NCBI GenBank assembly: GCA_029260825.1
Contig: JAJDCM010000382.1
Location: 1,221 to 65,220 of the forward strand
Reading direction: 5' to 3'
DNA: 64,000 bases
Source of the DNA: Planctomycetota bacterium
GTDB lineage: Bacteria; Planctomycetota; JACOTG01; JAJDCM01
Made by a program: the position numbers and the translations under genes. Positions 535-24,723 of this stretch are shown here, in pieces (position 1 is the stretch's first letter; every line of letters starts with the position of its first letter). The notes under the pieces were generated by a model. It was not told the origin of the DNA and did not search any database. It saw only the letters and a program-made list of their open reading frames with translations.

Positions 535-1317
535 TCAGAGCCGGTGGCGAATCGCCCACAGATCAGGGAACACCGGGTGAAACAACGACTTTTTGAGGAA
601 TTTGACCCCCAAGGTTCCGGCAGTTCCTTGCTTGCTTCCGATGGTACGCTCCACCAGCTTGACGTGGCGGTAGCGCCATTCCTGAAGCCCTTCGTCCACG
701 TCCGTCATGGCCTCGATGAGGTAGGTCATTTCCGGAACGTCACGATAGAGCTGAAGAACACAGTCTTGAATCGTGGTATTCGGGACCGTCGGAAGAGTGA
801 TGTCCTTTTCCCGAAGTTCGGCCGGTATGGGAGCACCTCGTTTTTCCAGAAGGTCGTAGAAATGATCGACCACCGATTTTTCTGCCAATCGTTTCTCGAC
901 TTTCGCGTAGCCCGGCGTGCCACTCTGAAGCAGACGCAGGGTGTCCGGTCGCTTGTAGCCAAGAACACACTCGATCTCTCGAAACTGCGCAGACTGAAGA
1001 CCGGAGGCCGTGTCCAAGCGCACCCGAAAACTCGTGAAGTGCATCGGCGTCATTGTCTCCAGGATGTCGACCTGAGAGACAAGTGTCTTCAGGACCATGC
1101 GGACTCTCTTCCACGTGGCAATCGAGCCGAAGAGATCATTGTCAGAGAAGTCGGTCTTGATCTTGTCGATCTCATGAAGAAGCAATTTGAACCACACTTC
1201 ATAGGCCTGATGGATGACGATGAACAGCATTTCATCGTGTTCCGGGGGATCGGATTGTGCTTCCTGCAGGCCAAGGAGTGTCTCAAGCTTCAAGTAGTCG
1301 GGGTAGGTAAGAGTCAT
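535..1317 (-). CDS. kynA: Tryptophan 2,3-dioxygenase
   Basis: 260-aa ORF with the TDO-family N-terminus (YPDYLKLETLLGLQ...IHQAYEVWFKLLLHE). It is 9 nt downstream of kynU on the same strand. Confidence 0.85.
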   Translation of the reverse strand: MTLTYPDYLKLETLLGLQEAQSDPPEHDEMLFIVIHQAYEVWFKLLLHEIDKIKTDFSDNDLFGSIATWKRVRMVLKTLVSQVDILETMTPMHFTSFRVRLDTASGLQSAQFREIECVLGYKRPDTLRLLQSGTPGYAKVEKRLAEKSVVDHFYDLLEKRGAPIPAELREKDITLPTVPNTTIQDCVLQLYRDVPEMTYLIEAMTDVDEGLQEWRYRHVKLVERTIGSKQGTAGTLGVKFLKKSLFHPVFPDLWAIRHRL

Positions 1318-1326
1318 TATTTGCTC

Positions 1327-2616: not shown

Positions 2617-2621
2617 CTCGG

Positions 2622-3644
2622 TCAGTTTGACTCCCCGAAGACGTCTTTTTCTTTCAGTCCCAAGAACTCCAGAGGAGTCTTCACCAGCATCTGGTGCTTT
2701 ACTTCGTCCCCGATGTCGGAAAGAGAATCAACCAGCTTTCCAGGTTCCGCTTCCCCCAAAGGAAAAGGATAGTCGGATCCAAGGGCGATGCGCTCGGGCC
2801 CGATGAGGTCGATGAGCCCTCGAAGAGCAAATGGATCGTAAACCGCAGTATCCACGTAGAATTTACCGATGTAACTCCTGGGACTCTTGTCGTTGTCAAC
2901 GGCACACAAGTCGGGGCGAGCGTTGAAGCCGTGTTCGATTCGTCCAATTGTCCAGGGGAATGAGCCCCCGCCATGAACGAACAGAAGCTTGAGTTTCGGC
3001 AGGCGTTCGAGAACACCACCAAAGATCATCGAGCTCAGGGCCAGGGCGGTTTCCGTGGGCATTCCCACCAGCCAGGGAAGCCAGTACTTCTTCATGCGAT
3101 CCTTGGCCAACATGTCCCAGGGATGAACCATGATGGCAGCGCCAAGCTCTTCGGCACGGGCAAAGACAGGGAAGAGCTCTTCCGCATCAAGGTTCCAATC
3201 GTTGACGTGGCTTCCGATCTGGACGCCGCACATGTTGAGCTCGCTCATACATCGTTCGAGCTCTTTGATGGCAAGGTCCGGAGCCTGCATGGGAAGGGTC
3301 GCGAGTCCTCCAAAACGTCGGGGACGATCCTTGACGATCTCGGCGATGTGATCGTTGAGAAGCCTCGAGAGATCGTGACAATCATCGTGCTTGGCCCAGT
3401 AGCCAAACATCACCGGCACCGTGGAGAGGACCTGGTACTGAACCCCGAGCTGATCACATTCTTCTTCTCGTTTCGCCGGGCTCCAGCAGTTCTCCTTGAT
3501 CTCACGAAAAAAGGTATCGTCCACCATCATTCGAGCGAATCCAGGTCGGTGGTGCTCGAGTCGGACAAATCCGCCGTAACCATACCGATCTCGAAGATCG
3601 GGCCAGGTTTCAGGCAGAATATGAGTGTGTAGATCGACCTTCAG
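2622..3644 (-). CDS. 2-amino-3-carboxymuconate-6-semialdehyde decarboxylase (amidohydrolase-2 family), probable CUG start
   Basis: The track ORF 2622..3530 aligns along its whole length to ACMSD (VRENCW, TLPMQAP, KYWLPWLVGMP, HGGG.FP.T.GRI.HGF). The in-frame sequence upstream of the first AUG encodes (L)KVDLHTHILPETWPDLRDRYGYGGFVRLEHH, which is the metal-binding HxH N-terminus of ACMSD. No AUG, GUG or UUG lies in frame back to the upstream TAG. A CTG at 3644-3642 sits 7 nt after a GGAGG Shine-Dalgarno. Confidence 0.75.
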   Translation of the reverse strand: MKVDLHTHILPETWPDLRDRYGYGGFVRLEHHRPGFARMMVDDTFFREIKENCWSPAKREEECDQLGVQYQVLSTVPVMFGYWAKHDDCHDLSRLLNDHIAEIVKDRPRRFGGLATLPMQAPDLAIKELERCMSELNMCGVQIGSHVNDWNLDAEELFPVFARAEELGAAIMVHPWDMLAKDRMKKYWLPWLVGMPTETALALSSMIFGGVLERLPKLKLLFVHGGGSFPWTIGRIEHGFNARPDLCAVDNDKSPRSYIGKFYVDTAVYDPFALRGLIDLIGPERIALGSDYPFPLGEAEPGKLVDSLSDIGDEVKHQMLVKTPLEFLGLKEKDVFGESN

Positions 3645-6577: not shown

Positions 6578-6963
6578 GCCTGGATCTCCTTTGCCCAGCG
6601 ATCGATTTCTTTTGTGAGTAGCTTCTTCACCTCTGGAAACGGAAGCCCGGAAAGTCGCGCTTCGGTAAGAATCTCCCGAAGCTTTGCCTGGATCCGGCCT
6701 CGAGTCGATTCCCCCTCCCCTGAGGGGCCATCCGTCGCCACCGTCACGCCCTTTCCACGTCCCACCTGAAGTAGCCCCTCGTCCCGAAGCTTCCGGTAGG
6801 CTCGGGCCACGGTGTTGAAGTGGATTCCAAGATCCCCGGCGAGCTGCCGGACCGAAGGGAGAGAATCTCCCGGGCCGAGCTCTCCTCGAGCAATGGTCTC
6901 CCGAATGCCCCGTCGGATTTGCTCCTCAAGGGGGATCGAACTTTCAAGGTCAACGGTGAGCAT
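6574..6963 (-). CDS. GntR-family (YtrA-like short) transcriptional regulator
   Basis: 129 aa with a winged HTH (LPSVRQLAGDLGIHFNTVARAYRKLRDEGLL) and a short C-terminal effector region. Confidence 0.8.
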   Translation of the reverse strand: MLTVDLESSIPLEEQIRRGIRETIARGELGPGDSLPSVRQLAGDLGIHFNTVARAYRKLRDEGLLQVGRGKGVTVATDGPSGEGESTRGRIQAKLREILTEARLSGLPFPEVKKLLTKEIDRWAKEIQA

Positions 6964-7084
6964 GGTTACGCTGTATCATCTATTGGTACAGTACGTCAAG
7001 CAGCTTGGAAGGTTCAAAAATCGGGCCAAAATCGGCGGCGGGAGCGTATTGACGAATCCGGGGGAAAGAGAAAACAATAGACCC

Positions 7085-8983
7085 ATGGTGAATCCAGGCA
7101 TGACCGAGGCAGCACTTCATGTGCAAAAAGGACCGGCGCGACCCAGCCGGGTGCTCCTTCGTGAGGATCTCCTGTTAATCGGGCGATCCGAGGACTGCGC
7201 TCTCATCTTGCTGGATGATACCGCCTCCCGTCACCATGCCAGCGTCGAGCGGACCGAGGATGGCTTTCGTTTGAAAGACCTGGGATCTTCAAATGGAACC
7301 TTCGTGAACGGAGACATGAATCCAGATCGACTCCTCATCGAGGGGGATGAGATCCGGATCGGCTCGGTTCACCTTCAATTCAGCCTGAAGGCCGGGCGGA
7401 AAACGATCATCGTCGAGGAAAAAGAGGAGAGTCCGACAACTCTGAGGGTTGAAACCTCCATACCCGGCCCCACGTTTGATCCCACCGAGGGCGATGACGA
7501 TGACGGGCTTCTTCGACGACTGAAAACACTTTATCGGGTAAACACGGCTCTTTCCCGGTGCCTCGATACGAACGAACTCCTCCTCGAGGTCTTTCGGAGT
7601 CTGACGGAGGTCCTTCCGTTTGAGCGAGGCGCGGTCTGGTACAGCAAGGGGGGGCAAACAAGACCTTTGATCTACTACCAGCGAGAAGACGAAAATCATC
7701 GCCCGTTTCAGGTGAGCTCGACTCTTCTCCAGCGAGTGCTGGTGAGCAAGGAAGGCGTCCTCGTTCGGGATGTTCTCGAGGACGAAAAACTCCGAGATCG
7801 CCGGAGTGTTCTTCTGGGTAGTACGCTCTCCATCGCTGCAGTGCCTCTTCTGGTTGAGGGCAATTGCATGGGAGTTCTCTACATCGACTCAACCCTGGTC
7901 GATTCCTTTTCTCCCGAGGATCTCGAATTGCTCCTGGGCCTGGCATGTCCCACCGGGCTGGCGATCCGCAACGCGGAAACTTTCACCCGAAAAGACCAGG
8001 AAGCTCATCGACTTCGCCAGGAGCTTACGACTCACCACCGAGCCATCGGTGATTCTCCCGAATTCAAGGAGGCGCTTTCCCTCACCGAGAAGGTGGGGCC
8101 GACGGACACCACCGTCCTCCTGCTCGGAGAGACCGGAACAGGTAAGGAGATTCTTGCCCGGACCATCCACAATCTGAGCACCCGAAGAGAAGGGCCCTTT
8201 GTCCCGGTGAATTGTGCGGCGATTTCTCCCTCCCTCCTTGAAAGTGAACTCTTCGGTCACGTCAGTGGAGCATTCACCGGAGCTCATCGGGACGCTCCGG
8301 GTCAGTTCAGGCTGGCTGACGGCGGCACATTATTCCTGGATGAAGTCGGGGAAATGCCCCCCGAGCTCCAATCAAAGCTTCTTCGAGTTCTCGAGGAGCG
8401 CGAAGTTCGTCCGGTGGGCGCCGATCGCACCGTGGCGATCGACATCAGGATTCTTGCCGCCACGAACCGGGATCTCCAGGGCGACATCGAAACCGGTGGC
8501 TTCCGCGCCGACCTCTACTATCGCCTGGGTGTGATGCAGATCAACATTCCACCTCTTCGGGAGCGAACGGGAGACATCTTGCTTCTCGCTCGATCCTTCC
8601 TTGACGCATTGCGAGGCGGCCTGGGGAAGCATCCTTCTGGCTTCTCTTCGGAGGCAGCAGAGATCCTAGAGCGGTATCCTTGGCCGGGAAATGTGCGAGA
8701 GCTTCGCAATGTGGTGGAAAGAGCATCCGTTCTTGCCGCAGGAGAGCAGATCAAACCGAGAGATCTCCCCGATGATGTCCGTCGGAGCATCCAGGGCGCT
8801 GGGGGTGGGCGCTTCGATGACCCGGCCGGGGATGAACCCATCTTCTCTCTCAAGGAAGCGGAAAAGATCGCCATTGAGAGGGCCCTCCAGAAGACCGGGG
8901 GGAGAAAGGGGGAGGCTGCCAAACTCCTCGGTACTTCCTGGCCAACCCTGACGAAGAAGATCCGAGAATACGGGCTGGATTGA
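7085..8983 (+). CDS. Sigma-54-dependent transcriptional activator with N-terminal FHA and GAF domains (FHA-GAF-AAA+-Fis HTH)
   Basis: FHA region LIGRSEDCALILLDDTASRHHASVE...LGSSNGTFVNG. AAA+ region GETGTGKEILARTIHNLSTRREGPFVPVNCAAI...GAFTGA. C-terminal HTH KGEAAKLLGTSWPTLTKKIREYGL. Start chosen at ATG 7085 because the track ORF start at 6812 overlaps the divergent GntR gene. Confidence 0.85.
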   Translation: MVNPGMTEAALHVQKGPARPSRVLLREDLLLIGRSEDCALILLDDTASRHHASVERTEDGFRLKDLGSSNGTFVNGDMNPDRLLIEGDEIRIGSVHLQFSLKAGRKTIIVEEKEESPTTLRVETSIPGPTFDPTEGDDDDGLLRRLKTLYRVNTALSRCLDTNELLLEVFRSLTEVLPFERGAVWYSKGGQTRPLIYYQREDENHRPFQVSSTLLQRVLVSKEGVLVRDVLEDEKLRDRRSVLLGSTLSIAAVPLLVEGNCMGVLYIDSTLVDSFSPEDLELLLGLACPTGLAIRNAETFTRKDQEAHRLRQELTTHHRAIGDSPEFKEALSLTEKVGPTDTTVLLLGETGTGKEILARTIHNLSTRREGPFVPVNCAAISPSLLESELFGHVSGAFTGAHRDAPGQFRLADGGTLFLDEVGEMPPELQSKLLRVLEEREVRPVGADRTVAIDIRILAATNRDLQGDIETGGFRADLYYRLGVMQINIPPLRERTGDILLLARSFLDALRGGLGKHPSGFSSEAAEILERYPWPGNVRELRNVVERASVLAAGEQIKPRDLPDDVRRSIQGAGGGRFDDPAGDEPIFSLKEAEKIAIERALQKTGGRKGEAAKLLGTSWPTLTKKIREYGLD

Positions 8984-9186: not shown

Positions 9187-10239
9187 ATGAACGAAAACAA
9201 GAACCTACATGCTCGCGTGACCCGAAACGCGGAGGATACTGCCAGCTTCGACACGAGTTCCCTGGTGGGGCTTGAGCTTGGCGGCTATCGACTGGACGAG
9301 CCGATTGGACAGGGAGGCATGGGATCCGTTTTTAGAGCAACCCAGCTCTCCCTCGGCCGCTCGGTTGCGGTGAAAGTACTCGCCCCCGAGCTTTCGGGGC
9401 GCGATCAGATGGTGTCCCGATTCAAGCGAGAGATCAAAACACTCACAAGCCTTAGCCACCCCAACATCGTTGCTCTTCTCGACGGAGGATTCGACAGCGA
9501 CAAGGGGCTTTATTACTACGTGATGGAGTTGATCGACGGAGTGACGGTTCGAGACGTGATCGACGGGGGCGGTCTTGAACCGGCAAAAGCGTTGCTCATG
9601 GTTCCCAAGATCTGCGATGCCCTGGAATATGCCCACCAGATGGGAGTCGTTCACCGGGACGTGAAGCCAGCCAACATCCTGTTGGACCGGGAAGGTCGGG
9701 TCAAGATCGCAGACTTCGGTCTTTCTCGTCTGATCGAAGAAAAGGAAGATGAAGGCCGGATCACCCGGACTCAGCAGGTCATGGGCACCGTCGAGTACAT
9801 GGCCCCCGAACAGCGAGAGGGGGCCAAGCACATCGATCATCGGGCAGACATCTACTCTCTCGGGGTTGTTTTCTACGAGCTGCTCACCGGTGAGCTCCCG
9901 ATCGGTCGGTTTGATCCCCCGAGTAAAAAGGTGGAAGTGGACGTGCGGCTGGATGACGTTGTTTTGCGGGTTCTCGCCAAAGATCCCCAGCGGCGCTACC
10001 AACGTGCAAGCGAGGTGGCCGTCGACGTACGAAGTCTCGAGTCGGACAGCGCCGTCGCCAGTCCGGGAACCAGTGGATCTCATCAGGAGGAGGAAGACAT
10101 GGAACACGCAATCTCGACCCCGTCCCGAGTCTCAGGATGGGCGATCGCCAGCTTCGTCCTGGCTCTTTTGATCATCGTGCCGTTTGTGCTGGGGATGCTC
10201 GCACTGTTGTTCCTGGGAGCAACCGTTCAGAGCGGATAA
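9187..10239 (+). CDS. Hanks-type Ser/Thr protein kinase (active; C-terminal TM anchor)
   Basis: Glycine loop GQGGMGSVF, VAVK lysine, HRDVKPANILL catalytic loop, DFG, APE. C-terminal hydrophobic segment. Confidence 0.85.
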   Translation: MNENKNLHARVTRNAEDTASFDTSSLVGLELGGYRLDEPIGQGGMGSVFRATQLSLGRSVAVKVLAPELSGRDQMVSRFKREIKTLTSLSHPNIVALLDGGFDSDKGLYYYVMELIDGVTVRDVIDGGGLEPAKALLMVPKICDALEYAHQMGVVHRDVKPANILLDREGRVKIADFGLSRLIEEKEDEGRITRTQQVMGTVEYMAPEQREGAKHIDHRADIYSLGVVFYELLTGELPIGRFDPPSKKVEVDVRLDDVVLRVLAKDPQRRYQRASEVAVDVRSLESDSAVASPGTSGSHQEEEDMEHAISTPSRVSGWAIASFVLALLIIVPFVLGMLALLFLGATVQSG

Positions 10240-14191: not shown

Positions 14192-15733
14192 CTACTCGCC
14201 CTTTGACCAGGTAGCCAGGACCAACAGGGTGGCCCAGGAAACTTCGCCAGGATAGCTGACAGCTTTCGTCACTCGAAGATGACGGCGAAGTTGTCGTTGC
14301 CTCGCCGAGACGATTGCTTTGGCGAAGTAGAGCGCCGGGGCGAGGGAGTAGGCGGCTTCGCCACCCAGACGATCCTCTCGAGTCCTGGCCCTCATGGCGG
14401 TCCAAAGTTTCTTGTTGTCCGGATGAAAGGTCCCCGAGGTACTTTTCAGATTCAATCCGGTCATCCCGGAATGTCCTCCGTCATAGCCAACCTCAAGCGC
14501 AAATGTTGCGATCTCCCGGGTGCGTTCCTTGATCAGAGGCGCCAGCCCGGGGGAGTGAGTCTCGATGACCAGCATTTCGTAGGGCCAGAGACAACCCAGA
14601 TGAAACCAGGTGACGTACCGTCCCTTCGGGTTCCGGGAAGCCAGGTAGGGCCATGTGATGAGGTCGCGGGTCTTGACCCACTCTCCTGGATCGGTCTGCC
14701 AGCCTCTCTTTGACGTATCACCGGCAACTTTTCGCCAGGAGCAAAACTGGAGCAAGCGGCCCTCGACAACGGCCAGGAAATCCTGGGTGGTTTCGAACGT
14801 AAATGGAACCTCTTTAAGCATCTCGGGGGTCAGATATCCCTGTTCAACTAGGGCCTCAAAGACCTGACTGAATCGAAAGGCTGCCCCCGCTGCTCGAACG
14901 AAAGGTCGAACGCCTCCCATTCCGATCATCCATTTCTCGTTCTCTGGATCATCCTGGAAAAATGGACTGTTCTGGAGACGATGAAAAGCGACTTGAAATC
15001 CGTTCAGCAGGGCAGCCCGGGTTTCACCGTCTCGTGCCGCGATTGCGGTCAGACCGATGGCCGGGTGCCTCTGAAGGTGTCCGTGGTCCTGCTTGTCCGG
15101 AATCTGGACCAGCCAGTTTGCGAGGTTGACGGCGTTGTCCCGTGCCTTCTCATCCCCGTAGAGTAGCCAGCCTAGAAGGTTATTCGTGATCCGGTCCGAA
15201 TCGTTGTTGCCCCGTCCTCCCCGGCGAGGGTCGGGGATGCTCTTTTCGTCCCCGGTTCGAACGTATCGCTCGAGCGGGTCTTTTACCTGGAGGGCGGCCA
15301 TGTAGCGCCGTCCCGCCGGGACGAGAGCCTTCTCGTAGAGTTTGCGAGCGATGGCCCTTTCCTTGGCGGTTCCTAGCGGAATGGGGAAGAGTTTTCCAAC
15401 TCGATCTTTCTCCACAACCGGATCGACTGGCTTCTGCTTCTCGTTCTTCTTTGTTCCGGGGTCAACCGTCGCTTTCTTGGAGCCGGAGATTGGTTGTGTT
15501 CCTGAGGAGGAGTCTTTCCCTGCCTTTGCCGGAGACGCTACCTCTCCGCCCAGCTGTCCTTTCTGGTGAGTTTCCGACGGACGCTTCTGGCTCTCCTCCT
15601 GGGAAATGGCGTCAGGAGCACCCCCAAATAAGAGGGAAGCAAGGAACAGCACGATGGGCCCCCGAAGCTTGAGAATCAGGGACCATGTCGGGGAATCCGT
15701 TTGGGCGTACATGGAGCACCTATTCTCCATCAT
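14192..15733 (-). CDS. Hypothetical secreted protein (signal peptide, no recognisable domain)
   Basis: Long ORF with signal peptide IVLFLASLLFGGAPDAISQ. It sits immediately downstream of the GDPD-FGGY gene, so it is probably co-transcribed. Confidence 0.5.
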   Translation of the reverse strand: MMENRCSMYAQTDSPTWSLILKLRGPIVLFLASLLFGGAPDAISQEESQKRPSETHQKGQLGGEVASPAKAGKDSSSGTQPISGSKKATVDPGTKKNEKQKPVDPVVEKDRVGKLFPIPLGTAKERAIARKLYEKALVPAGRRYMAALQVKDPLERYVRTGDEKSIPDPRRGGRGNNDSDRITNNLLGWLLYGDEKARDNAVNLANWLVQIPDKQDHGHLQRHPAIGLTAIAARDGETRAALLNGFQVAFHRLQNSPFFQDDPENEKWMIGMGGVRPFVRAAGAAFRFSQVFEALVEQGYLTPEMLKEVPFTFETTQDFLAVVEGRLLQFCSWRKVAGDTSKRGWQTDPGEWVKTRDLITWPYLASRNPKGRYVTWFHLGCLWPYEMLVIETHSPGLAPLIKERTREIATFALEVGYDGGHSGMTGLNLKSTSGTFHPDNKKLWTAMRARTREDRLGGEAAYSLAPALYFAKAIVSARQRQLRRHLRVTKAVSYPGEVSWATLLVLATWSKGE

Positions 15734-15756
15734 TGAGCGTGTCCGTCCAAGCGGAT

Positions 15757-17928
15757 TCAATCGAGCACCTTCCTGCGCCACTCCCGGTGGAGACGCTCGG
15801 CCTGCCGGGGGCGTGTGCGGGGGTGGATGACGGTAAGAGGTTCCCTCTCGCGAAGCCGTGCTTGCCCGCCCAGAGCCAGAAGAGCCGCGCCGATGATGGT
15901 GCTTTCCTGAACCGGGCTGACAAGAAGTGACGCGCAGAGGGTGTCCGCAAGGATCTGAAGAAGATGAGGATTCCTGGAAAGTCCGCCTCCCACGGTCAGA
16001 CGAGATCGATCGGGAACGACTCGTCCAAGCCGGATCAAATTCTCCCGCACCAGGTATGCGATCGACTCCAGGAGGCCCCGAGCAAGCCCGGGAGCGTTCC
16101 GACGTCCTCGGACAACAAACCGACGCCTCGGATCCCAGAAGGGAGATCCAAGGCCTTCCTGAGCGGGAAGGACGTAGGTCCCTGCCTCTCCTCGAGCGGC
16201 GAGCTCCCCAAGACTCAACTGGTCCGCATCGTTCTGGGCGAGGAAGCCCTGGATGGAAGGTACAACCCGGTGAACCGTGCCCTCGATCAGATACTCCGCC
16301 TTACCACCCTGGCTCCAAGCAATACTGGAAAGAAGGCCGGGCACGCGATGGAGCACCGAACCCGTGTTGGCAAGTAAGAATCCACCGGTCCCCAGATTCA
16401 GGCAGGCGGGACCGGTCTGGACTTCTCCAGAACCGAATGCGGCGAGCGCAGCCTGCTGGTCTCCGATCTGGCAACGGGTGACAAGCTTTCGGCCCCCCAG
16501 CATGATCTCGGCCGGGGATCCGCAAGTATCTGCAATCTCCGGGAGGATTGACGCCGGGATGCCAAAAAGGCTCAGAAGTTCCGGATCCCAGTCTCGTCGA
16601 CGCAGGTTCATGAGAAGCATGCGGGCGGCAAGGGTTGGGTCCGTGCGGAAGATGCGCCCCTCGGACCATCGCCACAAAAGATACGTGGGAAGGGGTCCAC
16701 AGAGAAGTCGATCCGAGTGAACTCGCGTCCGACGAAGCTTCCAGGCAATCTTGCTGGCTGAATAACTGGGAGACAGGAGAAGACCGGTTCGATCTCGGAC
16801 TAGATGGGCTGAGTCCTTGCGGGCGGCAACCAGACGACGTCCTCGAGTGCACCGCCAGCTCGGAGCATCCCCGATCGGCTTTCCTGTTTCCCGATCCCAC
16901 AGAACAAAAGTCGATCTCTGGGACGCGAGTGCCACGGTGCGTACGTTTTCTTCCTCGAGCAGGAGTCGAGAGGCCTCTCGGGTTACGAGACGCTCCACGG
17001 TTTCGGCATCGAGGCCAAGCTCACCCTTGGGGCCGCGAAGCGTGGGGAGCGGTTTCCTCACCAGCTTGAGCGGAACTCCCTGATGGGAGACAAGCGCAAT
17101 TTTTACCTCCGTTGACCCCAGATCGATGGACAGCACAGGGGCCCTTGCCCGGCTCGGACGAGGGGGAGACGAACGACGTTGATCGCCGACCAGCTCCACC
17201 CAACGGATCATGCGGCCCGGGTCATCGGTGATGACTCCATCCACTCCCACTCGATGCAGTCGTGTCAGCTCCTGTCGAGTGTTCACCGTATAGGGCAAGA
17301 TCTTGCGTCCTTGTCGATGCTGATTCTTGACCCAGCTCTTGGTCACGTGAGAGCGATTCGGAACGACGAAGGAAGCCTGAATCTCAGTGGCCAATCGATT
17401 GAGAGAAAAAGAAGGACGGGAAGGATAGACGATTCCGAGCTGGAGATCAGGAGCGTTTCTTGCAGCCTCTTGAACCATCGCCGGTTCCGCCGACGTCAAC
17501 AACGCCCGGTTGAAACCACCGGTTCTCCTCAGCGCCAGAAGGACCTCCCGGACAAGAGGCTCGGCGTGGGACGGGGGACCCTTGAGTTCCACATGTACGT
17601 CGACATCCGGCCGCAGAATGGCGAGAGCTTCATCAAGAGACAACATCCTTGTTCGACGCCAGGTCTGGTTCTTGCGAAAGTCCGGTCGGACTGAGAGCTC
17701 GCAGCATTCGGCAAGGGTCATCTCCCGGATCGAGCCGTTGTGGCCACAGACCCGCCGAGTGGTTGCATCATGGTGGACCAGAGCTCGGTCGTCCGCGGTC
17801 AGCTGAACATCGAATTCGACCGCATTCACCCCTGCGGCAAGGGCTAACGAGAACGAAGGAGCGGTGTTCTCCGGAGCGCGTGCGGCCGCACCGCGGTGGC
17901 CGACGACGATCAATCCGCCCTTGGTCAT
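15757..17928 (-). CDS. Fusion protein: glycerophosphodiester phosphodiesterase (GDPD) N-domain + FGGY-family glycerol-kinase-like C-domain
   Basis: N-terminus VVGHRGAAARAPENT...EFDVQLTADDRALVHHD (GDPD). C-terminus SIDLGSTEVKIALV...WDRETGKPI...LLLSPSYSASKIAWKL...GGGLSRNPHLLQILAD...IIGAALLA (FGGY/GlpK). Confidence 0.75.
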   Translation of the reverse strand: MTKGGLIVVGHRGAAARAPENTAPSFSLALAAGVNAVEFDVQLTADDRALVHHDATTRRVCGHNGSIREMTLAECCELSVRPDFRKNQTWRRTRMLSLDEALAILRPDVDVHVELKGPPSHAEPLVREVLLALRRTGGFNRALLTSAEPAMVQEAARNAPDLQLGIVYPSRPSFSLNRLATEIQASFVVPNRSHVTKSWVKNQHRQGRKILPYTVNTRQELTRLHRVGVDGVITDDPGRMIRWVELVGDQRRSSPPRPSRARAPVLSIDLGSTEVKIALVSHQGVPLKLVRKPLPTLRGPKGELGLDAETVERLVTREASRLLLEEENVRTVALASQRSTFVLWDRETGKPIGDAPSWRCTRGRRLVAARKDSAHLVRDRTGLLLSPSYSASKIAWKLRRTRVHSDRLLCGPLPTYLLWRWSEGRIFRTDPTLAARMLLMNLRRRDWDPELLSLFGIPASILPEIADTCGSPAEIMLGGRKLVTRCQIGDQQAALAAFGSGEVQTGPACLNLGTGGFLLANTGSVLHRVPGLLSSIAWSQGGKAEYLIEGTVHRVVPSIQGFLAQNDADQLSLGELAARGEAGTYVLPAQEGLGSPFWDPRRRFVVRGRRNAPGLARGLLESIAYLVRENLIRLGRVVPDRSRLTVGGGLSRNPHLLQILADTLCASLLVSPVQESTIIGAALLALGGQARLREREPLTVIHPRTRPRQAERLHREWRRKVLD

Positions 17929-18068: not shown

Positions 18069-21000
18069 CTACTCGGCGAGAAGATCCCGATATCGGAGGG
18101 ACTCGATCATTTCTCCCCGACTTTCGTAAAGACTTATGAGTGCGCGAATTGCCGTAAAAGTACGGTCGTGGTTCGGACCCAGGGCTGCGAGGAGACTTTT
18201 GTATCCTGACAGGAGGCTCGTCTGGGCTGCATCGAAGCGTTTTTGCTCGAGAAGGCAGGTCCCCAGATTCACTCGGGCAAAGCCGATCCTCCAGTCATCT
18301 TCCGGGAGTGCGGCAATCAGCCCTTCCAGAGACTCATTGAGCAGCATCTCGGCCTCCTCGGTTCGACCCAGATGAAAATAGCAGGCGGCAAGGTTGTTGA
18401 GAGTGAGATACGTCGCAGGATCTTCCTCGCCTCGGTGAGCCTTCCGCAGGACGAGTACCTTCTCGTAAATTCTTGAAGCATGCTTCACATTGCCTTGCTC
18501 CCTCAGAATGGAAGCCAGGGTTCCTCGGGCCGACAGGATCTCCGGGTGATAGGACATCTCACCCGTGTCAAGGCTTCCCAGGTTCAATGTTCGCAGAGCG
18601 GCCTCCGCCTTCACGAAATTTCCCTGGGCCTTGTAGACAAGAGCAAGTGAATGGCGGTGCTTGATCGTCTGGAGATGGGAGGACCCCAGGATGCGGTCAC
18701 AATCCTTGACGACGTTCAGGAATGCATTTTCTGCTCGTCCAAGATCTCCTTTTCGATAAAGAACCATCGCTCTTGAGGCTCGGACGGAAAGAAGTGCAGG
18801 GTGCTCGTAGCTGAACAGGTCAAGAAGACCCACCTGCCCGGTCGTGAAATGCTCTTCTGCCTCTTCAAGATGGCCCATCTTGAGAAGAAGTTCTCCGAGT
18901 GAGATCCGGCAAAGCAGAGTCAGTGGGTCGGAGGGACCGAGGGTCTTTGTCCTGACCTGAAACACCTTCCGGCGCTGTGACAGCGACTCGTCAAAGTTGT
19001 CGAGCTCGTCGAGGCACCTGGCGTGGTCGAGAATGGCCTCCTGGGCCCGGTGATTTTCAAGACCCAGACCCCTCGTCAGGCTTTCAGCACTCTGCTTCAG
19101 AATGATGGCAGCCTCTTCGGTTCGCTTCCGGTGCAACAAGTTGATCCCGAGGTTCCGTTGCACTTCCCGAACCATCGGATGATGAGGAGCAAGCTGGGCC
19201 AAGGATCTCTCCAGAATGTCCTTGAGGTCTTGCTCCGGGTTCCCTCCCTCGGATGAAACCGAGTTTCGTGCCTTCAGAAGGTCCAGTTCAAGGAGGATGG
19301 GATCGGCCAGGGCCGGACGATTGTTACACCAGGCTATGGCCTTTCTTAATGCTTCCGTTGCTTGCGAACCTTCACCCCGATCCTGATGCAATTTCACCAG
19401 GTTGAAGTACAGACGAACCGGGAGGGTGGTCCCGGTGTCAGGGCAAGAATTCAGCTTCTCAAGCCCGAGATTCCATTGTTCGATGGCGTGTCGTGGATTT
19501 CCCCGGGCAAGCGCAATACGACCGAGGCTCTCGGAAACCCGGACCGCAAGGAGACTACTCTTGCCGGCGATTTGCTTCAGTTCTTCAAGAACTCCCTTGG
19601 CCTCTTCAAACTTCCCGATCTCCAGAAGCACATCGGCAAGATTCTCCAGGACCATCGGTTCATGAGGGTCAGGGGAACCTGCGGCCCCGGAAACATTGTT
19701 CACGCGAACAAGCTCGTAGGCCTCTTTCAGAAATCCTTCTGCATCCTGGAGGCGAAGTTCGAGCACCAGAACATCGGCGAGATCGCAAAGCTCCTTCACC
19801 CGGCTCTTGTGATCAACGGTCTTCTCGGGTCTATTCTCCTGAGTAAGAAGCCGGCGCAGCTCTTCGGCTTCATGCAGGAGAGCGTTCCTCTTCCCATCCT
19901 TGGATGAACAAGCCACGTCTACGAGATGATCGGCGAGAACCCGACGCGTGTCCCGAATGAAAGATCGAGGGTCATCTCCTGTGGATTTCAGAAGACGTAA
20001 GGATTCCCTCAACAGGCCGATTCCCCGGTCCGACTCGCCGCAGCGAAGATAAGCCTTTCCGAGAATCGAATAGGTGATTCCTCGGGAGACCTCATCGTTG
20101 GCAAATCTGATGCTGGCCTGGTCGCTCGCCAGAGTTGTAAGTTCCGATAGAGTCAGCCGGCGATTCCCTGGGCCGTCGCTCTCTCCCAGGACATCGGAAA
20201 GGAAGGAAAGGATCCCGTCGGTCCGACGACTGTCCGTCCGTGCTTTCTGGAGTTCTTGACCGAGTTCAGCCAATTCGGTCATCAACCCCGCCGCTTTCAT
20301 CTCTTCGGCTTCAAATCGATGTTCGGCATCAACCCGAGAAGCCCGTGCGGAGTCCAGAGTCTTTTCCGCCTGCTGGTTCTTCGATTGTTCATGAAAAAGA
20401 AGAGTCACGAGGCTGGCCAAAACGAGCATTACACTTCCAGTGATCGAGCCAGCAAGGAGAGCCAATTTGGGATTCCGGCGACGAAAGAGAGAAATCCGCT
20501 GGAAAGGAGTGACGGGACGATCCGGTAGAGGCACCTTCCTTTCATGGAGGGAGACATCCCGGGCAAGGTCGGCGACGCTCGCATGGCGTCTCCGGCGATC
20601 TTTGGAGAGCGCCCTCGTCGCGATGAAGTCAAGGTCACCGGCGAGCCTGGCCGAAAGGCCGCCCTCACTCAGACCTCTTCGTTTGGCGATCTGACCCCAG
20701 TCTTCAGTAGGTGAACCTACTTGCTGGCTCGGTTTGGGTGGAGGTTGTCGAAAAAGCTGAGAGGCGGACATCTCTGTCCCTGACTCCGGCTTTTGGGCGG
20801 AAAAGATCCCGACGCCACAGATCATCTCATAGAGAACGACTCCCAGGGCGTGAACGTCCACCCGAACGTCAAGGAACTTATGAGGGTCGAGATGCTCCGG
20901 GCTGAGTCCGTCCAGGTCGGGGAAGTATTTGATAATATCAATTGCTGGTAGATGCTCGGTCTTTCTGGCAAGCCAGCTTGCGGGCCCCATTCGTTGGACT

Positions 21001-21527
21001 CTCGGAGTCGGTTTGTTGTCGCTGCTGACGACGGCAATATCTTGACTTCTCAGGCCACCATGGATGATCCCCTTCAGGTGAGCATGTTGGATTGCTTCGC
21101 AAAGTCGGAGAAAGAGAGCGCACCGATTCGAGAGCGAAACATGCTGGGTATCACAAAACTCCTGGAGTGTTGGCGCCTGAATCCAGTCCGAAATGTAGTA
21201 GGGCTGTTGCTCCTGGGTCAACCCGGATCCGAGGTTTCGTGCAAGTCCCGGGTGGCGGATGTTCGAGAGACGTTCGCTGTGTTGCGCAAAGAAAGCTCGA
21301 TCGACGGGATCGTCGAGCCGGGCGGTGAGAACATCCACCCTGACGGTTTTTGGGGTGTTTCTTGCTCCCTCCACTTCACCTCGCCAGACAGAGAATCCTG
21401 GTGTCTCCTCGATCATCTCAAGAAGATTCACGTCCTCGATCTTTGGCGCAGGTGTTCTCGCGGCGGCGGTGATGCCTCCATCACGGCCGCCTTTCTCAGA
21501 TGGGTGGCTCTGGCCCTTGAGCCCCAT
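18069..21527 (-). CDS. Large pseudokinase-TM-TPR protein (Hanks-kinase-like N-domain with degenerate catalytic motifs, single TM, long TPR array)
   Basis: Kinase-like region with HRDLKPxN replaced by HGGLRSQD, no DFG, and an altered beta3 Lys (RVDVL). Activation/APE-like LGVVLYEMICG is retained. A TM segment LLAGSITGSVMLVLASLVTLLF is followed by about 750 aa of TPR-like repeats. Confidence 0.8.
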   Translation of the reverse strand: MGLKGQSHPSEKGGRDGGITAAARTPAPKIEDVNLLEMIEETPGFSVWRGEVEGARNTPKTVRVDVLTARLDDPVDRAFFAQHSERLSNIRHPGLARNLGSGLTQEQQPYYISDWIQAPTLQEFCDTQHVSLSNRCALFLRLCEAIQHAHLKGIIHGGLRSQDIAVVSSDNKPTPRVQRMGPASWLARKTEHLPAIDIIKYFPDLDGLSPEHLDPHKFLDVRVDVHALGVVLYEMICGVGIFSAQKPESGTEMSASQLFRQPPPKPSQQVGSPTEDWGQIAKRRGLSEGGLSARLAGDLDFIATRALSKDRRRRHASVADLARDVSLHERKVPLPDRPVTPFQRISLFRRRNPKLALLAGSITGSVMLVLASLVTLLFHEQSKNQQAEKTLDSARASRVDAEHRFEAEEMKAAGLMTELAELGQELQKARTDSRRTDGILSFLSDVLGESDGPGNRRLTLSELTTLASDQASIRFANDEVSRGITYSILGKAYLRCGESDRGIGLLRESLRLLKSTGDDPRSFIRDTRRVLADHLVDVACSSKDGKRNALLHEAEELRRLLTQENRPEKTVDHKSRVKELCDLADVLVLELRLQDAEGFLKEAYELVRVNNVSGAAGSPDPHEPMVLENLADVLLEIGKFEEAKGVLEELKQIAGKSSLLAVRVSESLGRIALARGNPRHAIEQWNLGLEKLNSCPDTGTTLPVRLYFNLVKLHQDRGEGSQATEALRKAIAWCNNRPALADPILLELDLLKARNSVSSEGGNPEQDLKDILERSLAQLAPHHPMVREVQRNLGINLLHRKRTEEAAIILKQSAESLTRGLGLENHRAQEAILDHARCLDELDNFDESLSQRRKVFQVRTKTLGPSDPLTLLCRISLGELLLKMGHLEEAEEHFTTGQVGLLDLFSYEHPALLSVRASRAMVLYRKGDLGRAENAFLNVVKDCDRILGSSHLQTIKHRHSLALVYKAQGNFVKAEAALRTLNLGSLDTGEMSYHPEILSARGTLASILREQGNVKHASRIYEKVLVLRKAHRGEEDPATYLTLNNLAACYFHLGRTEEAEMLLNESLEGLIAALPEDDWRIGFARVNLGTCLLEQKRFDAAQTSLLSGYKSLLAALGPNHDRTFTAIRALISLYESRGEMIESLRYRDLLAE

Positions 21528-21869
21528 ATCGATCTCCTATCTTCCCTGACAAAGGGGTCAGCTGCTGGGTCTACCCCTCGGACCCAGTCCAGTATGAACA
21601 AAGCGATGGGAGACTGGCAATCAATTTGTTTATCTCGGGGAGAGATCGGAGGGAGGAGGATAGGGTCCTTTCTTCATTCAGGTTCACCACTTACGCTTCT
21701 GTGCTGGCTGACTGAAGAAAGTCGTATAACTTCCTATCTAGCGGGCTTCGGCTCCTCCAAGTGTTGCCTGAAGGGAGGATGCTGTCCTGGAGCGCTGAAA
21801 TCCGGACCGCTGAGGAAGGGGGCGAAATAGAGTAATTCTTTTATCGCCTTGCCCGGCAGGGAGTTTCGG

Positions 21870-22643
21870 TCAAAAAGAGTATTCTTTCCCCATTTCGACC
21901 ACGCTGATGTTGTCCCGTCCGAGGTTTTCGAGCTGCTCCATGATGGTGTCCCGATATTGAGGCTTCATGTGGACGATCTGAATCTTGACTCCGTCGACTT
22001 TGAGCTTTTTCAGCTCTTCGTCAAGAGAATGGGGGGTCAGGTGCCGGGCCACCTGGGCCAGCCCCTCCATTTCGTTTGGATAGGAAACGTCGATGAAGAT
22101 GGATTTCAGATTCTTGGCCTGATTGCAGAAGTCCCACATCCGATCCGTGCGGTAAGTGTCGGACGTGAAGCAAAAAGAGCTCTCCTTGGCCTGAAGAACC
22201 AAGGCGTGGGTCGGAATAATATGGCTTGTCGTGATCGGAGTGATCGTGAGTCCGTTGATCTCGAACGACTTTTCCTCTTCAATCTCGACGTATTCAAGAC
22301 CTTTTCCCGAGCCTTGCAAAAGATCGATCCGGTCAAAACGGGGCCAGATCAGGTCGTTGAAGATGTGTTTCTTCAGGCTCGCGATCACCGTTTTGGATCC
22401 GTAGATACGAAACGGTTCATCCAGGAACGGGAAGACCTCGGAAACAAAGAGGGGCAACGTTGCCACGTGATCAATATGCTCGTGAGTCACGACAACGTTT
22501 CGAATCTTTGTCTGCTCAGCAAGGGGAACAGCAAGTCCCAGGCTTCCACCGTCGATCGCCAGAGAGCGATTGACCAGGATGGTCGTGAGCGTCTGCAACC
22601 ACTTCGTGTTCTGAAAATGGCTGGGAAGCAATTTGACTTTCAT
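21870..22643 (-). CDS. Metallo-beta-lactamase-fold hydrolase, class II 3',5'-cyclic-nucleotide phosphodiesterase-like
   Basis: HxHxDH motif (VVVTHEHIDHV) and the N-terminal GG loop of MBL enzymes. It lies 62 nt downstream of the cyclase gene on the same strand. Confidence 0.6.
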   Translation of the reverse strand: MKVKLLPSHFQNTKWLQTLTTILVNRSLAIDGGSLGLAVPLAEQTKIRNVVVTHEHIDHVATLPLFVSEVFPFLDEPFRIYGSKTVIASLKKHIFNDLIWPRFDRIDLLQGSGKGLEYVEIEEEKSFEINGLTITPITTSHIIPTHALVLQAKESSFCFTSDTYRTDRMWDFCNQAKNLKSIFIDVSYPNEMEGLAQVARHLTPHSLDEELKKLKVDGVKIQIVHMKPQYRDTIMEQLENLGRDNISVVEMGKEYSF

Positions 22644-22705: not shown

Positions 22706-24268
22706 TTACTTGGCAAAGACCTCATAGATCCGAACCGGTTTCTGTCGCCCTTTCACCTGGATCTCATGAATAAATTTGCCTTCGAATTCTTCTTTGGCCC
22801 TGTTCCAGGACTCCTCGGCCACGGCGATGCCCGATTCCGTTTCTTGCTTGGAAAGCCGTTCCGATACATTGACCGGGTCACCGATGACGGCATATTCCAG
22901 GCGATGTCTCGGACCAATGTTGCCAGCGATCACGTGCCCCGTATTGATGCCGATCCGGAGAGCGAAAGCTCGCTCCGGCGTCGATGCGTTGAATTCATGG
23001 ACTCGACGCATGAGCTCCTGGGCAGCCCTCACGCCGCATATCTCGTGCTGATCCACTTCCAAGGGAGCATTGAAGACAGCCAGGACTGCGTCCCCGATGT
23101 ACTTATTGACGTGACCCTTGTGCGCAAAGACCGCATCGGCCGACATTTCATAGAAACTGTTCAACAGCCCGTGGATTCCGGTTTCCCCGAGCTTTTCCGT
23201 CAACCCGACCGAGTTGCGAATGTCGGCGAACAACAGGGTGACTTCTTTTCGGCCGGTTACGAGCTTCCCCTCGTTCTTCATCAGAAGCTCAACCACATCC
23301 GGCGAGTGGTACTGGCCCAGACTATTTCGGAGCCGCTCTTCCTTCTCAAGCTTGATTCGAAGAGCCAGAAGATTGGCAATACCACACAAAAGAGCCTGAT
23401 CTTCACGAGAGAAAGGAAACGCCTGATTGGAACTCTCCAGGTAAATAGCTCCATGAGATGTCTCGTGATCCCAGAGGGGAACACAGAGAACGGAACGAAT
23501 CTGGTCCAGAATAATACTTTCCATGTTCTGGAACCGGGGATCCGTCGTGGCATCGCTTGTCAGGGTCGCTACATGTTCGTCAAAGGCCCGTTTGAGAATC
23601 GACGTGCTGTAACCTTTGGGTTCATCACTGAGGAACCCGTCATACCGGTCGTAATGAACCTGGGCCGAAAAGGCCTGGGTTTTCTGGTCTCGCAAGAAGA
23701 GGATTCCTCGGTCGGCCGTCATGACCTCAAAAATGGAGAGCATGACAAGACGTGTGAGATGGTCCAGGTCTCCCTGCTGGCAAAGCTTCTTCGAGATCTG
23801 ATAGAGCGAGAAGAACATCTGGGAACCCTTGCTCGTATCTCCGATCCCGGAAAGGGTGGTCTCTGCCGCCGGAGGAGGAATCGACATCGAGGCCTGGCTG
23901 TGCAAACTGAATTCCTGCAGCACCTCTTCCGCATCCGATTCAATCTTTGGACCGCTGGGCTCCGCCGGCTCGCTCTCGGAGACATCCCCCTCAAAGACAA
24001 GTTCGACTTTGCCGATCCGAATCGTATCTGCGGCTCTTAGTTCTGATTTTGTTACCGGGGACTCGTTGAGGAGGGTCCCGTTGAGACTCTGGAGATCTTC
24101 GACCGTGTAGCGTCCGTCTTCGAATTTGATGCGACAGTGCTTCCTCGAGAGAAACGGCTGATTGACCGGAAGGTCGCAATCAGGATCTCGACCAATGATG
24201 ATCGGGTTCGGACCCAACGCGATTTCCTGCTGGATTACGCCGTCGGTTTTCAGTACCAGTTTAGCCAT
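22706..24268 (-). CDS. Class III adenylate/guanylate cyclase with N-terminal FHA and GAF domains
   Basis: FHA IIIGRDPDCDLPV...SRKHCRI...LQSLNGTLLN. Cyclase motifs VTLLFADIRNSVGLTE, KYIGDAVLAVFNAP, LRIGINTGHVIAGNIG, EYAVIGDPVNVSERL. Start taken at MAKLVLKTDG (24268). Confidence 0.85.
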   Translation of the reverse strand: MAKLVLKTDGVIQQEIALGPNPIIIGRDPDCDLPVNQPFLSRKHCRIKFEDGRYTVEDLQSLNGTLLNESPVTKSELRAADTIRIGKVELVFEGDVSESEPAEPSGPKIESDAEEVLQEFSLHSQASMSIPPPAAETTLSGIGDTSKGSQMFFSLYQISKKLCQQGDLDHLTRLVMLSIFEVMTADRGILFLRDQKTQAFSAQVHYDRYDGFLSDEPKGYSTSILKRAFDEHVATLTSDATTDPRFQNMESIILDQIRSVLCVPLWDHETSHGAIYLESSNQAFPFSREDQALLCGIANLLALRIKLEKEERLRNSLGQYHSPDVVELLMKNEGKLVTGRKEVTLLFADIRNSVGLTEKLGETGIHGLLNSFYEMSADAVFAHKGHVNKYIGDAVLAVFNAPLEVDQHEICGVRAAQELMRRVHEFNASTPERAFALRIGINTGHVIAGNIGPRHRLEYAVIGDPVNVSERLSKQETESGIAVAEESWNRAKEEFEGKFIHEIQVKGRQKPVRIYEVFAK

Positions 24269-24723
24269 CGTGTCCCTTAGCCTCTTTACGGGCCGCTTGT
24301 CAGAATTTGAGCCCGGCCTTCTCGCACATCTCAAAGCGATCGAATGTTTTAACCTTATTAGAGTGGCAACGGAAGGAGCTTTGAGCGTCAGCCAGACGAA
24401 GGCCCTTCTGTTGTTTGGCTGTTACCGTAACAGCTTGAATGACTTATCTGCAAGCACATGACATGACTAAGCTTGGTCATGACTTGCCATCGTAGGTAGG
24501 GGTTCCGTTAGCGGGGGCCGGTCTCAGTTGAGTCCCGATCTCTGGAAACGAAATGTAATCTGATCAAGGAAATCCTCCGGTTGTTCCAAACCGCCCAGCG
24601 AGGCACCAGGGATCGTGGTGAAGGAAGGGCCACCCGAGAAGAGTCTTGTCGGGGTCGTTTGTCCTGAAAATCGGAGCAAAAACCGGATCGATGAAAGACT
24701 TCAACTGGAATGGGAGCGCAGCG

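Follow-up and report, generated by a model that had tools for sequence, protein, structure and literature searches.

A putative receptor-like pseudokinase with a conserved TPR end module, encoded beside a cyclic-nucleotide gene pair in a Planctomycetota bacterium

The gene and its reading frame

We analysed a 64,000-nucleotide stretch of DNA from a Planctomycetota bacterium (GenBank assembly GCA_029260825.1, contig JAJDCM010000382.1, positions 1,221 to 65,220 of the forward strand), referred to here as the window, and in it the gene for a protein that joins a degenerate Hanks-type kinase domain to a predicted transmembrane helix and a long tetratricopeptide repeat (TPR) region. A sequence-only reading of the window had placed a protein of 1152 amino acids (aa) at positions 18069-21527 without giving a strand; the open reading frame (ORF) proved to be intact and lies on the minus strand. 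The gene and the main parts of its product are listed below, in coordinates of the window.

18069..21527, minus strand: complete gene for the putative pseudokinase-transmembrane-stalk-TPR protein, 1152 aa, ATG start, from the ORF list and translation
21534..21537, minus strand: Shine-Dalgarno-like GGAG, 6 nt 5' of the ATG, read from the sequence
20523..21440, minus strand: degenerate Hanks-type kinase domain, residues 30-335, by Pfam, PDB match, AlphaFold2 and Foldseek; predicted cytoplasmic
20397..20471, minus strand: single transmembrane helix, residues 353-377, Kyte-Doolittle value 2.08, a helix in both AlphaFold2 models
20181..20339, minus strand: stalk helix of 53 residues, 397-449, of low to moderate confidence in the full-length AlphaFold2 model; predicted extracytoplasmic
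18075..20150, minus strand: TPR-like region, residues 460-1151, about 34 helices forming about 17 hairpins in the AlphaFold2 model; predicted extracytoplasmic
18072..18980, minus strand: C-terminal TPR module, residues 850-1152, better conserved than any other part of the protein

The sense frame of the gene contains no stop codon, against about 44 predicted from its base composition, and the other five frames across 18069..21527 carry between 15 and 43 stops each. The sense frame of a syntenic orthologue, described below, is likewise uninterrupted, with about 25 stops expected. Therefore, the open frame appears to have been maintained by selection in both genes. The exact 1152-residue protein is represented by a single database record at NCBI. 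Promoter and terminator scans gave signals at background level only and did not delimit the transcription unit.

The N-terminal domain retains a kinase fold

Residues 85-258 matched the Pfam Pkinase model (PF00069) with 37.9 bits, above the cut-off of 31.7, and a phmmer comparison of the N-terminal 366 residues with the PDB returned the receptor kinase PknS (9EED) at 7e-24 and mycobacterial PknB at about 1e-14. An AlphaFold2 model of residues 1-376 reached a predicted local distance difference test score (pLDDT) of 87 and a predicted template-modelling score of 0.86, and its best Foldseek match was again 9EED, with a target TM-score of 0.85; the model indicates that the sequence is compatible with a kinase fold and is no independent proof of one. 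A bilobal fold recognised from both sequence and predicted structure places the domain in the Hanks-type superfamily, in line with the sequence-only reading, which had described an N-terminal Hanks-kinase-like domain with its fold landmarks in place. The landmarks retained are the alphaE/catalytic-loop histidines H150 and H156, G181, the SPE motif at residues 209-211, D224 (the alphaF aspartate), G229 and R314, which pairs with the SPE glutamate; these residues form the structural core of the C-lobe. The activation segment is of full length, with about 28 residues between RMG and SPE, and the helices can be followed through alphaI in the model.

20895..20903, minus strand: SPE (the APE motif), residues 209-211, kept here and in the orthologue; like R314 and D224, a sign that the C-lobe core is intact

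The catalytic residues are lost

We aligned the N-terminal part of the protein with its 119 nearest relatives, taken from the word-indexed cluster search described below, and scored the positions at which at least 90% of these relatives agree. The catalytic elements compare as follows.

21390..21413, minus strand: former glycine loop IEETPGFS, residues 39-46, with EETPGF against GxGGxG; each glycine is present in at least 110 of the 119 relatives
21333..21344, minus strand: beta3 VRVD, residues 62-65, against VAxK; Ala63 is Arg and Lys65 is Asp, where Ala and Lys are each found in 117 of the 119 relatives
21276..21293, minus strand: alphaC FFAQHS, residues 79-84; Arg79, Glu83 and Arg84 of the relatives are Phe, His and Ser
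21039..21062, minus strand: catalytic loop HGGLRSQD, residues 156-163, against HRDxKPSN in the relatives
20985..20993, minus strand: RMG, residues 179-181, against DFG, whose Asp and Phe occur in all 119 relatives

The alphaC helix spans residues 74-88 in the AlphaFold2 model. In the catalytic loop, all 119 relatives have Asp158, Lys160, Pro161 and Asn163, and 118 have Arg157; in the activation segment, Thr196 and Thr204 of the relatives are replaced by Ile and Asp. The window protein hence carries K65D, E83H, D158G, N163D and D179R together with a fully altered glycine loop, at positions that the relatives keep in at least 110 of 119 cases. Every residue that would bind ATP or Mg or transfer phosphate is altered, the HRD arginine and the catalytic-loop lysine among them. 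Neither beta2 nor the glycine loop contains a lysine able to replace that of beta3, and no aspartate lies beside position 158 or 179. Since there is no nearby lysine or aspartate to act as a substitute, the catalytic residues appear to be lost and not shifted. The sequence-only reading had proposed the loss of the catalytic aspartate (HGGLRSQD for HRDLKPxN), of the DFG motif and of the beta3 lysine, with the reservation that these residues might be present but displaced; all three losses hold in the 119-relative alignment, and no displaced residues were seen in it.

The domain fits the sequence definition of a pseudokinase, in that a kinase fold is present and the VAIK lysine, the HRD aspartate and the DFG aspartate are all three absent, and we consider the window protein very probably to be one. 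The replacements support the view that phosphotransfer by the canonical mechanism is excluded for the kinase-fold domain. The alanine of VAxK is a catalytic-spine residue that contacts and stacks on the adenine ring of ATP. Because this alanine is an arginine in both lineages that carry the gene, the ATP pocket is probably not merely inactive but occluded. Automatic annotation will call the protein a serine/threonine protein kinase, which as a statement of activity would be wrong.

Membrane topology and repeat region

The sequence-only reading had put a transmembrane helix after the kinase domain, and the hydrophobic segment at residues 353-377, which AlphaFold2 also models as a helix, bears this out; a hydrophobic segment occupies the same place in 117 of the 119 relatives. 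The helix follows a basic stretch, RISLFRRRNPK. Four Arg or Lys and no acidic residue fall within the 15 positions ahead of the helix, and two basic and three acidic residues within the 15 behind it, a charge distribution by which the kinase domain is predicted to be cytoplasmic and the C-terminus extracytoplasmic.

In the full-length AlphaFold2 model (pLDDT 80), a linker of low confidence separates the transmembrane and stalk helices, and confidence is very high from about residue 780 onwards. Pfam TPR matches cover residues ~585-1105 (TPR_12 at 4.8e-49, TPR_10, TPR_2 and others). The earlier estimate of about 750 aa of TPR was thus roughly right in extent, but the repeats themselves take up about 690 aa and the remainder is stalk. 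The domain order of kinase, single transmembrane helix and C-terminal TPR is that of the PknS-like receptor kinases.

The degenerate state is rare among relatives

Relatives were collected in two independent ways: the full protein was compared with 5.8 billion clusters through a word index, and the kinase domain was run exhaustively against 1.84 billion representatives with HMMER. All 268 nearest relatives from both searches keep a canonical HRD followed by DFG, the query alone lacking them, and the matches listed for the HMMER search were canonical in 150 of 150 cases. The nearest relatives are 24-36% identical to the window protein and are kinase-transmembrane-TPR or kinase-transmembrane-WD40 proteins; those with names come largely from Planctomycetota, Verrucomicrobiota and Acidobacteriota. 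These 268 proteins (with TPR_12/TPR_10 or WD40 repeats) have the same domain order as the window protein, its alphaE/catalytic-loop signature CxAIQHAHxKGIIH and a C-terminal TPR end module of the same type. In contrast to the window protein, they keep VAxK, HRDxKPxN and DFG, and the kinase domain is their conserved part, a pattern that is inverted here. The top HMMER match (P0121, 257 bits) was set aside as a special relative, being a chimeric sequence with two active kinase domains.

When the 5.8 billion clusters were searched for close orthologues with the full protein or with a two-sequence profile, only active relatives of at most 33% identity were returned; the word-indexed profile search, built from the window protein and its orthologue, missed even that orthologue, which is recorded in three sources, and repeat-rich relatives can escape such a search. 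A scan of species-representative genome contigs gave no match with the protein and 79 loci, all canonical, with the profile. One locus that looked degenerate (L025) was rejected, as an assembly gap, written as X residues, falls on its DFG region. A metagenome scan recovered only the already-found JGI contig as a member, and a further locus from it (L088) encodes a canonical kinase. Among 102 kinase ORFs in 86 fetched loci, the sole other degenerate copy was the syntenic orthologue, in three identical copies.

A syntenic orthologue with a different degenerate active site

The orthologue was located through the FHA-GAF cyclase encoded upstream, whose orthologues are 64-66% identical. It belongs to one related uncultured lineage and occurs in three identical copies, in samples from JGI, ENA and Logan (L001-L003), where the gene order is that of the window: ManC, the cyclase, a phosphodiesterase (PDE), a Pkinase-TPR gene of 1146-1151 aa, a GDPD-FGGY gene, an uncharacterised gene and an acyl-CoA dehydrogenase (ACAD) gene. 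The two proteins are collinear over their whole length at 30% identity, with flanking genes at 57-66% between the two lineages. The kinase domain of the orthologue scores 36.9 bits in Pfam, just over the cut-off. The orthologous gene (L003, 12545-16000) has a G+C content of 67% and a third-codon-position value (GC3) of 78%, against 56% and 60% for the window gene, despite the common gene order. The active-site regions compare as follows.

Beta3 motif: window VRVD (Lys to Asp); orthologue VRLH (Lys to His)
AlphaC glutamate: window His; orthologue Arg
Catalytic loop: window HGGLRSQD; orthologue HGDLGQNS, with the HRD Asp kept and Lys and Asn lost
DFG position: window RMG; orthologue DAP

Five derived changes are common to both proteins, A50G, A63R, I95L, R157G and K176R. 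BLAST had suggested that a change of the DFG aspartate to arginine was also common to the two, a suggestion that was dropped, as ungapped and MAFFT alignments place an aspartate there in the orthologue.

Constraint lies on the end module and the C-lobe core

By region, identity between the window protein and its orthologue is 26% in the kinase domain, 17-21% in the transmembrane helix and stalk, and 25-26% in the first two thirds of the repeat region; it lies at 17-26% from residue 30 to residue 850 and at 38-47% over the last 300 residues. BLAST comparisons that included the fetched relatives gave the same picture. Each C-terminal TPR module has the other as its best hit, at 43% identity and 216 bits, where active relatives reach about 100 bits. 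For the pseudokinase domains the order is reversed: either one matches active kinases at 33-36% identity and 150-170 bits, but its counterpart at 27% and about 90 bits, which puts the counterpart at about rank 255 of 270. Both proteins keep 26 of 79 family-conserved positions, nearly all in the C-lobe core and none of them catalytic; the core residues kept in both include H150, H156, the APE glutamate, D224, G229, R314 and D324. The pseudokinase gene evolves about twice as fast as its neighbours.

Together, these comparisons read as constraint on the end module of the predicted extracytoplasmic sensor and on the C-lobe core and fold, not on the active site. Since the arginine at the VAxK alanine and the glycine at the HRD arginine are common to both proteins, activity had probably gone before the two lineages separated from their common ancestor. 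The active site since then reads as having drifted freely and independently in each lineage, with the fold and the end module still under selection.

Neighbouring genes and the cyclic-nucleotide link

Upstream of the putative pseudokinase gene and on the same strand lie genes for a PDE and a cyclase of a cyclic nucleoside monophosphate (cNMP), and downstream of it a fusion gene.

21870..22643, minus strand: PDE of the class-II/metallo-beta-lactamase fold (Pfam PDEase_II, Lactamase_B_2), THEHIDH (HxHxDH) intact, 342 nt upstream of the pseudokinase gene
22706..24334, minus strand: FHA-GAF-class III cyclase (Pfam), with a probable start at Met23 (24268); the database copy has 520 aa
15757..17928, minus strand: fusion of a glycerophosphodiester phosphodiesterase (GDPD) and an FGGY (glycerol-kinase-like) kinase, the downstream neighbour; in a related lineage (L004) it follows the PDE gene directly

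The FHA domain of the cyclase has its phosphothreonine-binding residues GR, SRxH and NGT intact, and the cyclase domain has both metal-binding Asp residues and the Asn/Arg pair. At residues ~488-500 of the cyclase ORF the substrate-specifying lysine is present (NKYIGD), and the partner aspartate site, usually D-x-W-G, reads A-V-I-G by eye, which leaves nucleotide specificity uncertain. For the PDE orthologues (L001, 11623-12396), a precomputed Pfam list names the Anti-Pycsar Apyc1 family as well. Matches between the cyclase and Pycsar cyclase models are confined to the level of generic domains, and the PDE has no PADLOC match. A defence-island reading was rejected, as PADLOC gives generic kinase and cyclase domain matches only and none for the PDE or the downstream genes.

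The cyclase-PDE pair occurs in three related lineages, which are about equidistant (flanking proteins 55-66% identical), and a pseudokinase gene stands at this position in two of the three; because of these equal distances, a single gain of the gene cannot be told from a single loss. Cyclase and PDE genes are closely coupled, being 62 nt apart in the window, 80 nt apart in L002 and overlapping in L004, and the gap between the PDE and pseudokinase genes is 342 nt in the window and about 150-165 nt in L002. An Rfam search of the 342-nt gap found no RNA family, and a regulatory RNA or conserved element there was rejected as a candidate on this result and because the gap cannot be aligned with the orthologous one. 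The FHA residues of the cyclase are invariant whether or not a pseudokinase is encoded at the locus. As cyclase orthologues without a pseudokinase neighbour keep these residues equally, the cyclase does not depend on the pseudokinase. By its distribution, the pseudokinase gene is an accessory, clade-limited insertion beside the cNMP pair and not a co-conserved partner of it. The sequence-only reading had drawn on the neighbouring cNMP cyclase/PDE operon for the role of the protein: the adjacency itself is real (same strand, 342 nt), but it is a weak argument for a role, and the proposed co-conservation with the FHA-GAF cyclase fared poorly, the gene being absent from L004 and no kinase gene standing beside the cyclase in the distant lineages.

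Other features of the region

Downstream of the GDPD-FGGY fusion, and overlapping it by 25 nt, lies a 529-aa ORF (14192-15781, minus strand) that matched nothing in Pfam, NCBIfam or PADLOC; it stays paired with the fusion gene in all three related lineages (window, L002 and L004). On the plus strand, positions 6812-8983 encode a 723-aa FHA-GAF-sigma-54 activator with an HTH_8 domain, directly followed at 9187-10239 by a 350-aa Ser/Thr kinase with GQGGMG, VAVK, HRDVKPAN, DFG and APE intact and a C-terminal hydrophobic tail anchor. This tail-anchored kinase, 8 kb from the pseudokinase gene, is canonical and apparently active. The cyclase and the sigma-54 activator are two FHA-GAF proteins with the same input module and different outputs, so that a live kinase and a dead one are encoded in this region along with two FHA-GAF proteins. 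The window also contains rpoN (39433-40839), a kynurenine-pathway cluster with tryptophan 2,3-dioxygenase, kynureninase and an amidohydrolase (535-3530, minus strand), and a gene for a 715-aa protein with N-terminal ankyrin repeats and a PQQ/BamB-like beta-propeller (47382-49529, minus strand).

Comparison with described kinases and pseudokinases

PknS (XAC4127) of Xanthomonas citri is a receptor Ser/Thr kinase that phosphorylates the extracytoplasmic function (ECF) sigma factor EcfK; it consists of a cytoplasmic kinase, one transmembrane helix and a periplasmic TPR region without which it does not signal in vivo and which seems to hold autophosphorylation back (PMC13147305). Among solved structures it is the best match to the window protein both in sequence (7e-24) and in structure (target TM-score 0.85), and it has the same layout. 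PknS is active and autophosphorylating, whereas the window protein, as judged from the alignment, lacks the catalytic residues. It has three TPRs in 833 aa, against about 17 hairpins in 1152 aa, and 83 aa before its kinase domain (the relatives have a median of 88 before the glycine loop), against about 30 residues here, where the glycine-loop position is residue 40. PknS-like kinases are associated with ECF43 sigma factors, and no ECF sigma gene was found among the larger ORFs at 10-30 kb of the window, small ORFs not having been scanned exhaustively; many of the relatives do not adjoin their sigma factor gene.

A classification of about 300,000 bacterial Ser/Thr kinases recognised seven pseudokinase families, ActPs1-3, GLW, CP1, DYD and DLHK, which are actinobacterial, cyanobacterial or proteobacterial (PMC12599244). 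Their hallmarks include an activation-loop deletion in ActPs3, loss of the G helix in ActPs1, poly-Leu/Trp at beta3 in GLW, and, in CP1 and DLHK, the lack of a transmembrane segment and the presence of COG3899 or other C-terminal domains (PMC12599244). None of the seven is described with TPR, Planctomycetota are not mentioned, and a post-kinase TPR is noted for five active families only (PMC12599244). The window protein, with its full activation segment, VRVD at beta3 and transmembrane and TPR regions, is set apart from all seven by these descriptions. On this comparison it forms, with its one orthologue, an uncatalogued small pseudokinase clade that arose inside an active receptor-kinase family.

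Within ActPs3, MviN (Rv3910) of Mycobacterium tuberculosis recruits the FHA protein FhaA once PknB has phosphorylated it (PMC12599244). Like the window protein, MviN is a membrane-tethered bacterial Hanks-type pseudokinase in which all three catalytic motifs are degraded. Bulky side chains occupy its adenine pocket (PMC12599244), a state to which the window protein may be likened through Arg63. Unlike the window protein, MviN is actinobacterial, fused to a lipid II flippase, has an activation-loop deletion and has no TPR; the window protein has a full-length activation segment and comes from a different parent kinase family. EssB/YukC of type VIIb secretion is also a single-pass scaffold with a degraded kinase fold in the cytoplasm (PMC12599244). 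It differs in belonging to Firmicutes, in being part of a secretion machine (the window offers no secretion-system context), in its strongly shortened activation loop and in having no TPR. In eukaryotes, HER3 and plant BIR2-type receptors combine a binding ectodomain, a single transmembrane helix and a dead kinase that acts by pairing with active kinases. They serve here as an analogy only, there being no evolutionary link beyond the kinase superfamily, and pairing of the window protein with an active kinase is hypothetical.

Discussion

We propose, with somewhat more confidence than doubt, that the protein is a non-catalytic single-pass receptor or scaffold derived from a PknS-like Hanks-type receptor kinase. 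A scaffold or receptor role in place of an enzymatic one had been suggested by the sequence-only reading, and it is the most reasonable reading given the lost residues and the architecture. The protein would have originated in the PknS-like receptor kinase family, with its cytoplasmic kinase, one transmembrane helix and extracytoplasmic TPR, and would have kept the sensor side while giving up the enzymatic output. With that output gone, the remaining output would have to be protein-protein contact of the cytoplasmic domain. The TPR array may bind a partner or ligand outside the cytoplasm, as is thought for the TPR regions of active relatives, and the signal would then be passed on by the cytoplasmic pseudokinase domain through protein-protein contact. 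It might do so as the co-receptor or decoy partner of an active Ser/Thr kinase, or by being phosphorylated in trans and then docking FHA-domain proteins. Candidate partners are the FHA-GAF cyclase encoded two genes upstream and the pair of active kinase and FHA-GAF sigma-54 activator encoded 8 kb away.

Several observations weigh against this proposal. No partner of the pseudokinase emerged from any test in this analysis, and in the juxtamembrane segment there is no threonine in the same alignment column of both orthologues. The orientation, with the N-terminus in the cytoplasm and the TPR region outside, is itself a prediction, and the alignment that AlphaFold2 received consisted of active kinases, so that a kinase fold was partly to be expected. 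An estimate of the ratio of nonsynonymous to synonymous substitution rates (dN/dS) on the kinase domain was precluded by there being only two lineages, the three copies L001-L003 being identical. In the second related lineage (L004/L005) there is no kinase-TPR gene, and GDPD-FGGY comes next after the PDE gene; the pseudokinase gene is therefore dispensable. The 342-nt gap does not align with the orthologous gap in L002, and, as the gap between the PDE and pseudokinase genes is not conserved, co-transcription with the cNMP genes is no more than a possibility. In four lineages with distant cyclase orthologues of 35-50% identity (L006, L007, L094 and L095), the cyclase gene is followed by dxr (1-deoxy-D-xylulose 5-phosphate, or DXP, reductoisomerase) and rseP (an M50 site-2 protease), without PDE or kinase, and a fifth distant cyclase orthologue, on a short contig, has neither beside it.

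The most specific form that the receptor-or-scaffold proposal could take is an FHA-docking scaffold for the cNMP module, in which an active kinase would phosphorylate a threonine of the pseudokinase in the activation segment or juxtamembrane region, the FHA domain of the cyclase would bind it, and cNMP synthesis would be recruited or regulated at the membrane under the TPR sensor. Such phospho-docking is conceivable from the MviN-PknB-FhaA precedent, in which a phosphorylated bacterial pseudokinase recruits an FHA protein (PMC12599244), and coupling to the cyclase is a possible arrangement that draws on adjacency in only two lineages, where the gene lies on the same strand and directly downstream of the cyclase-PDE pair. 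The intact GR, SRxH and NGT residues of the cyclase FHA domain, the canonical kinase encoded 8 kb away, and Thr190, which stands in a column with threonine in 81 of the 119 relatives and has a leucine at +3, fit with it. However, L004 keeps the cyclase-PDE pair without the pseudokinase, the distant cyclase orthologues adjoin dxr and rseP in four lineages and no kinase in the fifth, the FHA residues are kept equally everywhere, so that the FHA ligand must be more general, the 342-nt gap is not conserved, and neither the juxtamembrane region nor the activation segment has a threonine in the same column of both orthologues. We regard this form as distinctly unlikely. The full chain, from the TPR sensor through phosphorylation in trans by the nearby active kinase to docking of the cyclase by its FHA domain, and perhaps of the sigma-54 activator by its own, is more improbable still.

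The drift of the active site could also mean that the kinase domain is vestigial, with only a membrane-anchored TPR array at work, for example as a periplasmic scaffold, and the kinase remnant kept for membrane insertion or stability. The kinase domains resemble active kinases (33-36%, 150-170 bits) more than each other (27%, about 90 bits) where the C-terminal TPR modules share 43%, the orthologues have different residues at the catalytic positions (D and H for K65, G and D for D158, D and S for N163), and the whole gene is missing from L004. Nevertheless, about 300 residues are still collinear with few gaps, both proteins score above the Pfam kinase cut-off, the C-lobe core residues are kept in both and the fold is predicted with confidence; a useless domain would be expected to shrink or break in lineages whose housekeeping neighbours are only about 60% identical, and we consider a vestigial domain unlikely. 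An atypical enzyme, catalysing phosphotransfer in a non-canonical way as WNK does or another nucleotide-dependent reaction as SelO and SidJ do, has precedents among supposed pseudokinases (reviewed in PMC12599244), and the orthologue retains the HRD aspartate (HGD) and an aspartate at the DFG position (DAP). In the window protein, by contrast, K65, E83, D158, N163, D179 and the glycine loop are replaced all together, no lysine in beta2 or the glycine loop could stand in for that of beta3, and the arginine at the VAxK alanine should fill the adenine site; the replacement residues differ between the orthologues, which argues against a new active site. An enzyme of this kind is extremely improbable.

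That some paralogue in a large kinase family should lose catalysis is to be expected, and membrane-tethered bacterial pseudokinases are already known in MviN and EssB/YukC; a narrow clade of two lineages, whose partners are candidates only, is accordingly of modest general importance. If the relay through the cyclase were real, it would be a bacterial connection from Ser/Thr phosphorylation to a cNMP, built around a dead kinase, of a kind so far undescribed. Bacterial pseudokinases have been little studied, and the present case suggests that kinase-transmembrane-TPR receptors, of which Planctomycetota and related phyla have a great many, can yield dead-kinase receptors. The most instructive point is the inverted conservation, in which the predicted sensor is kept while the active site appears to drift, and the window protein and its orthologue in L002 form a natural pair for asking which surfaces of a kinase fold survive once catalysis is no longer needed.

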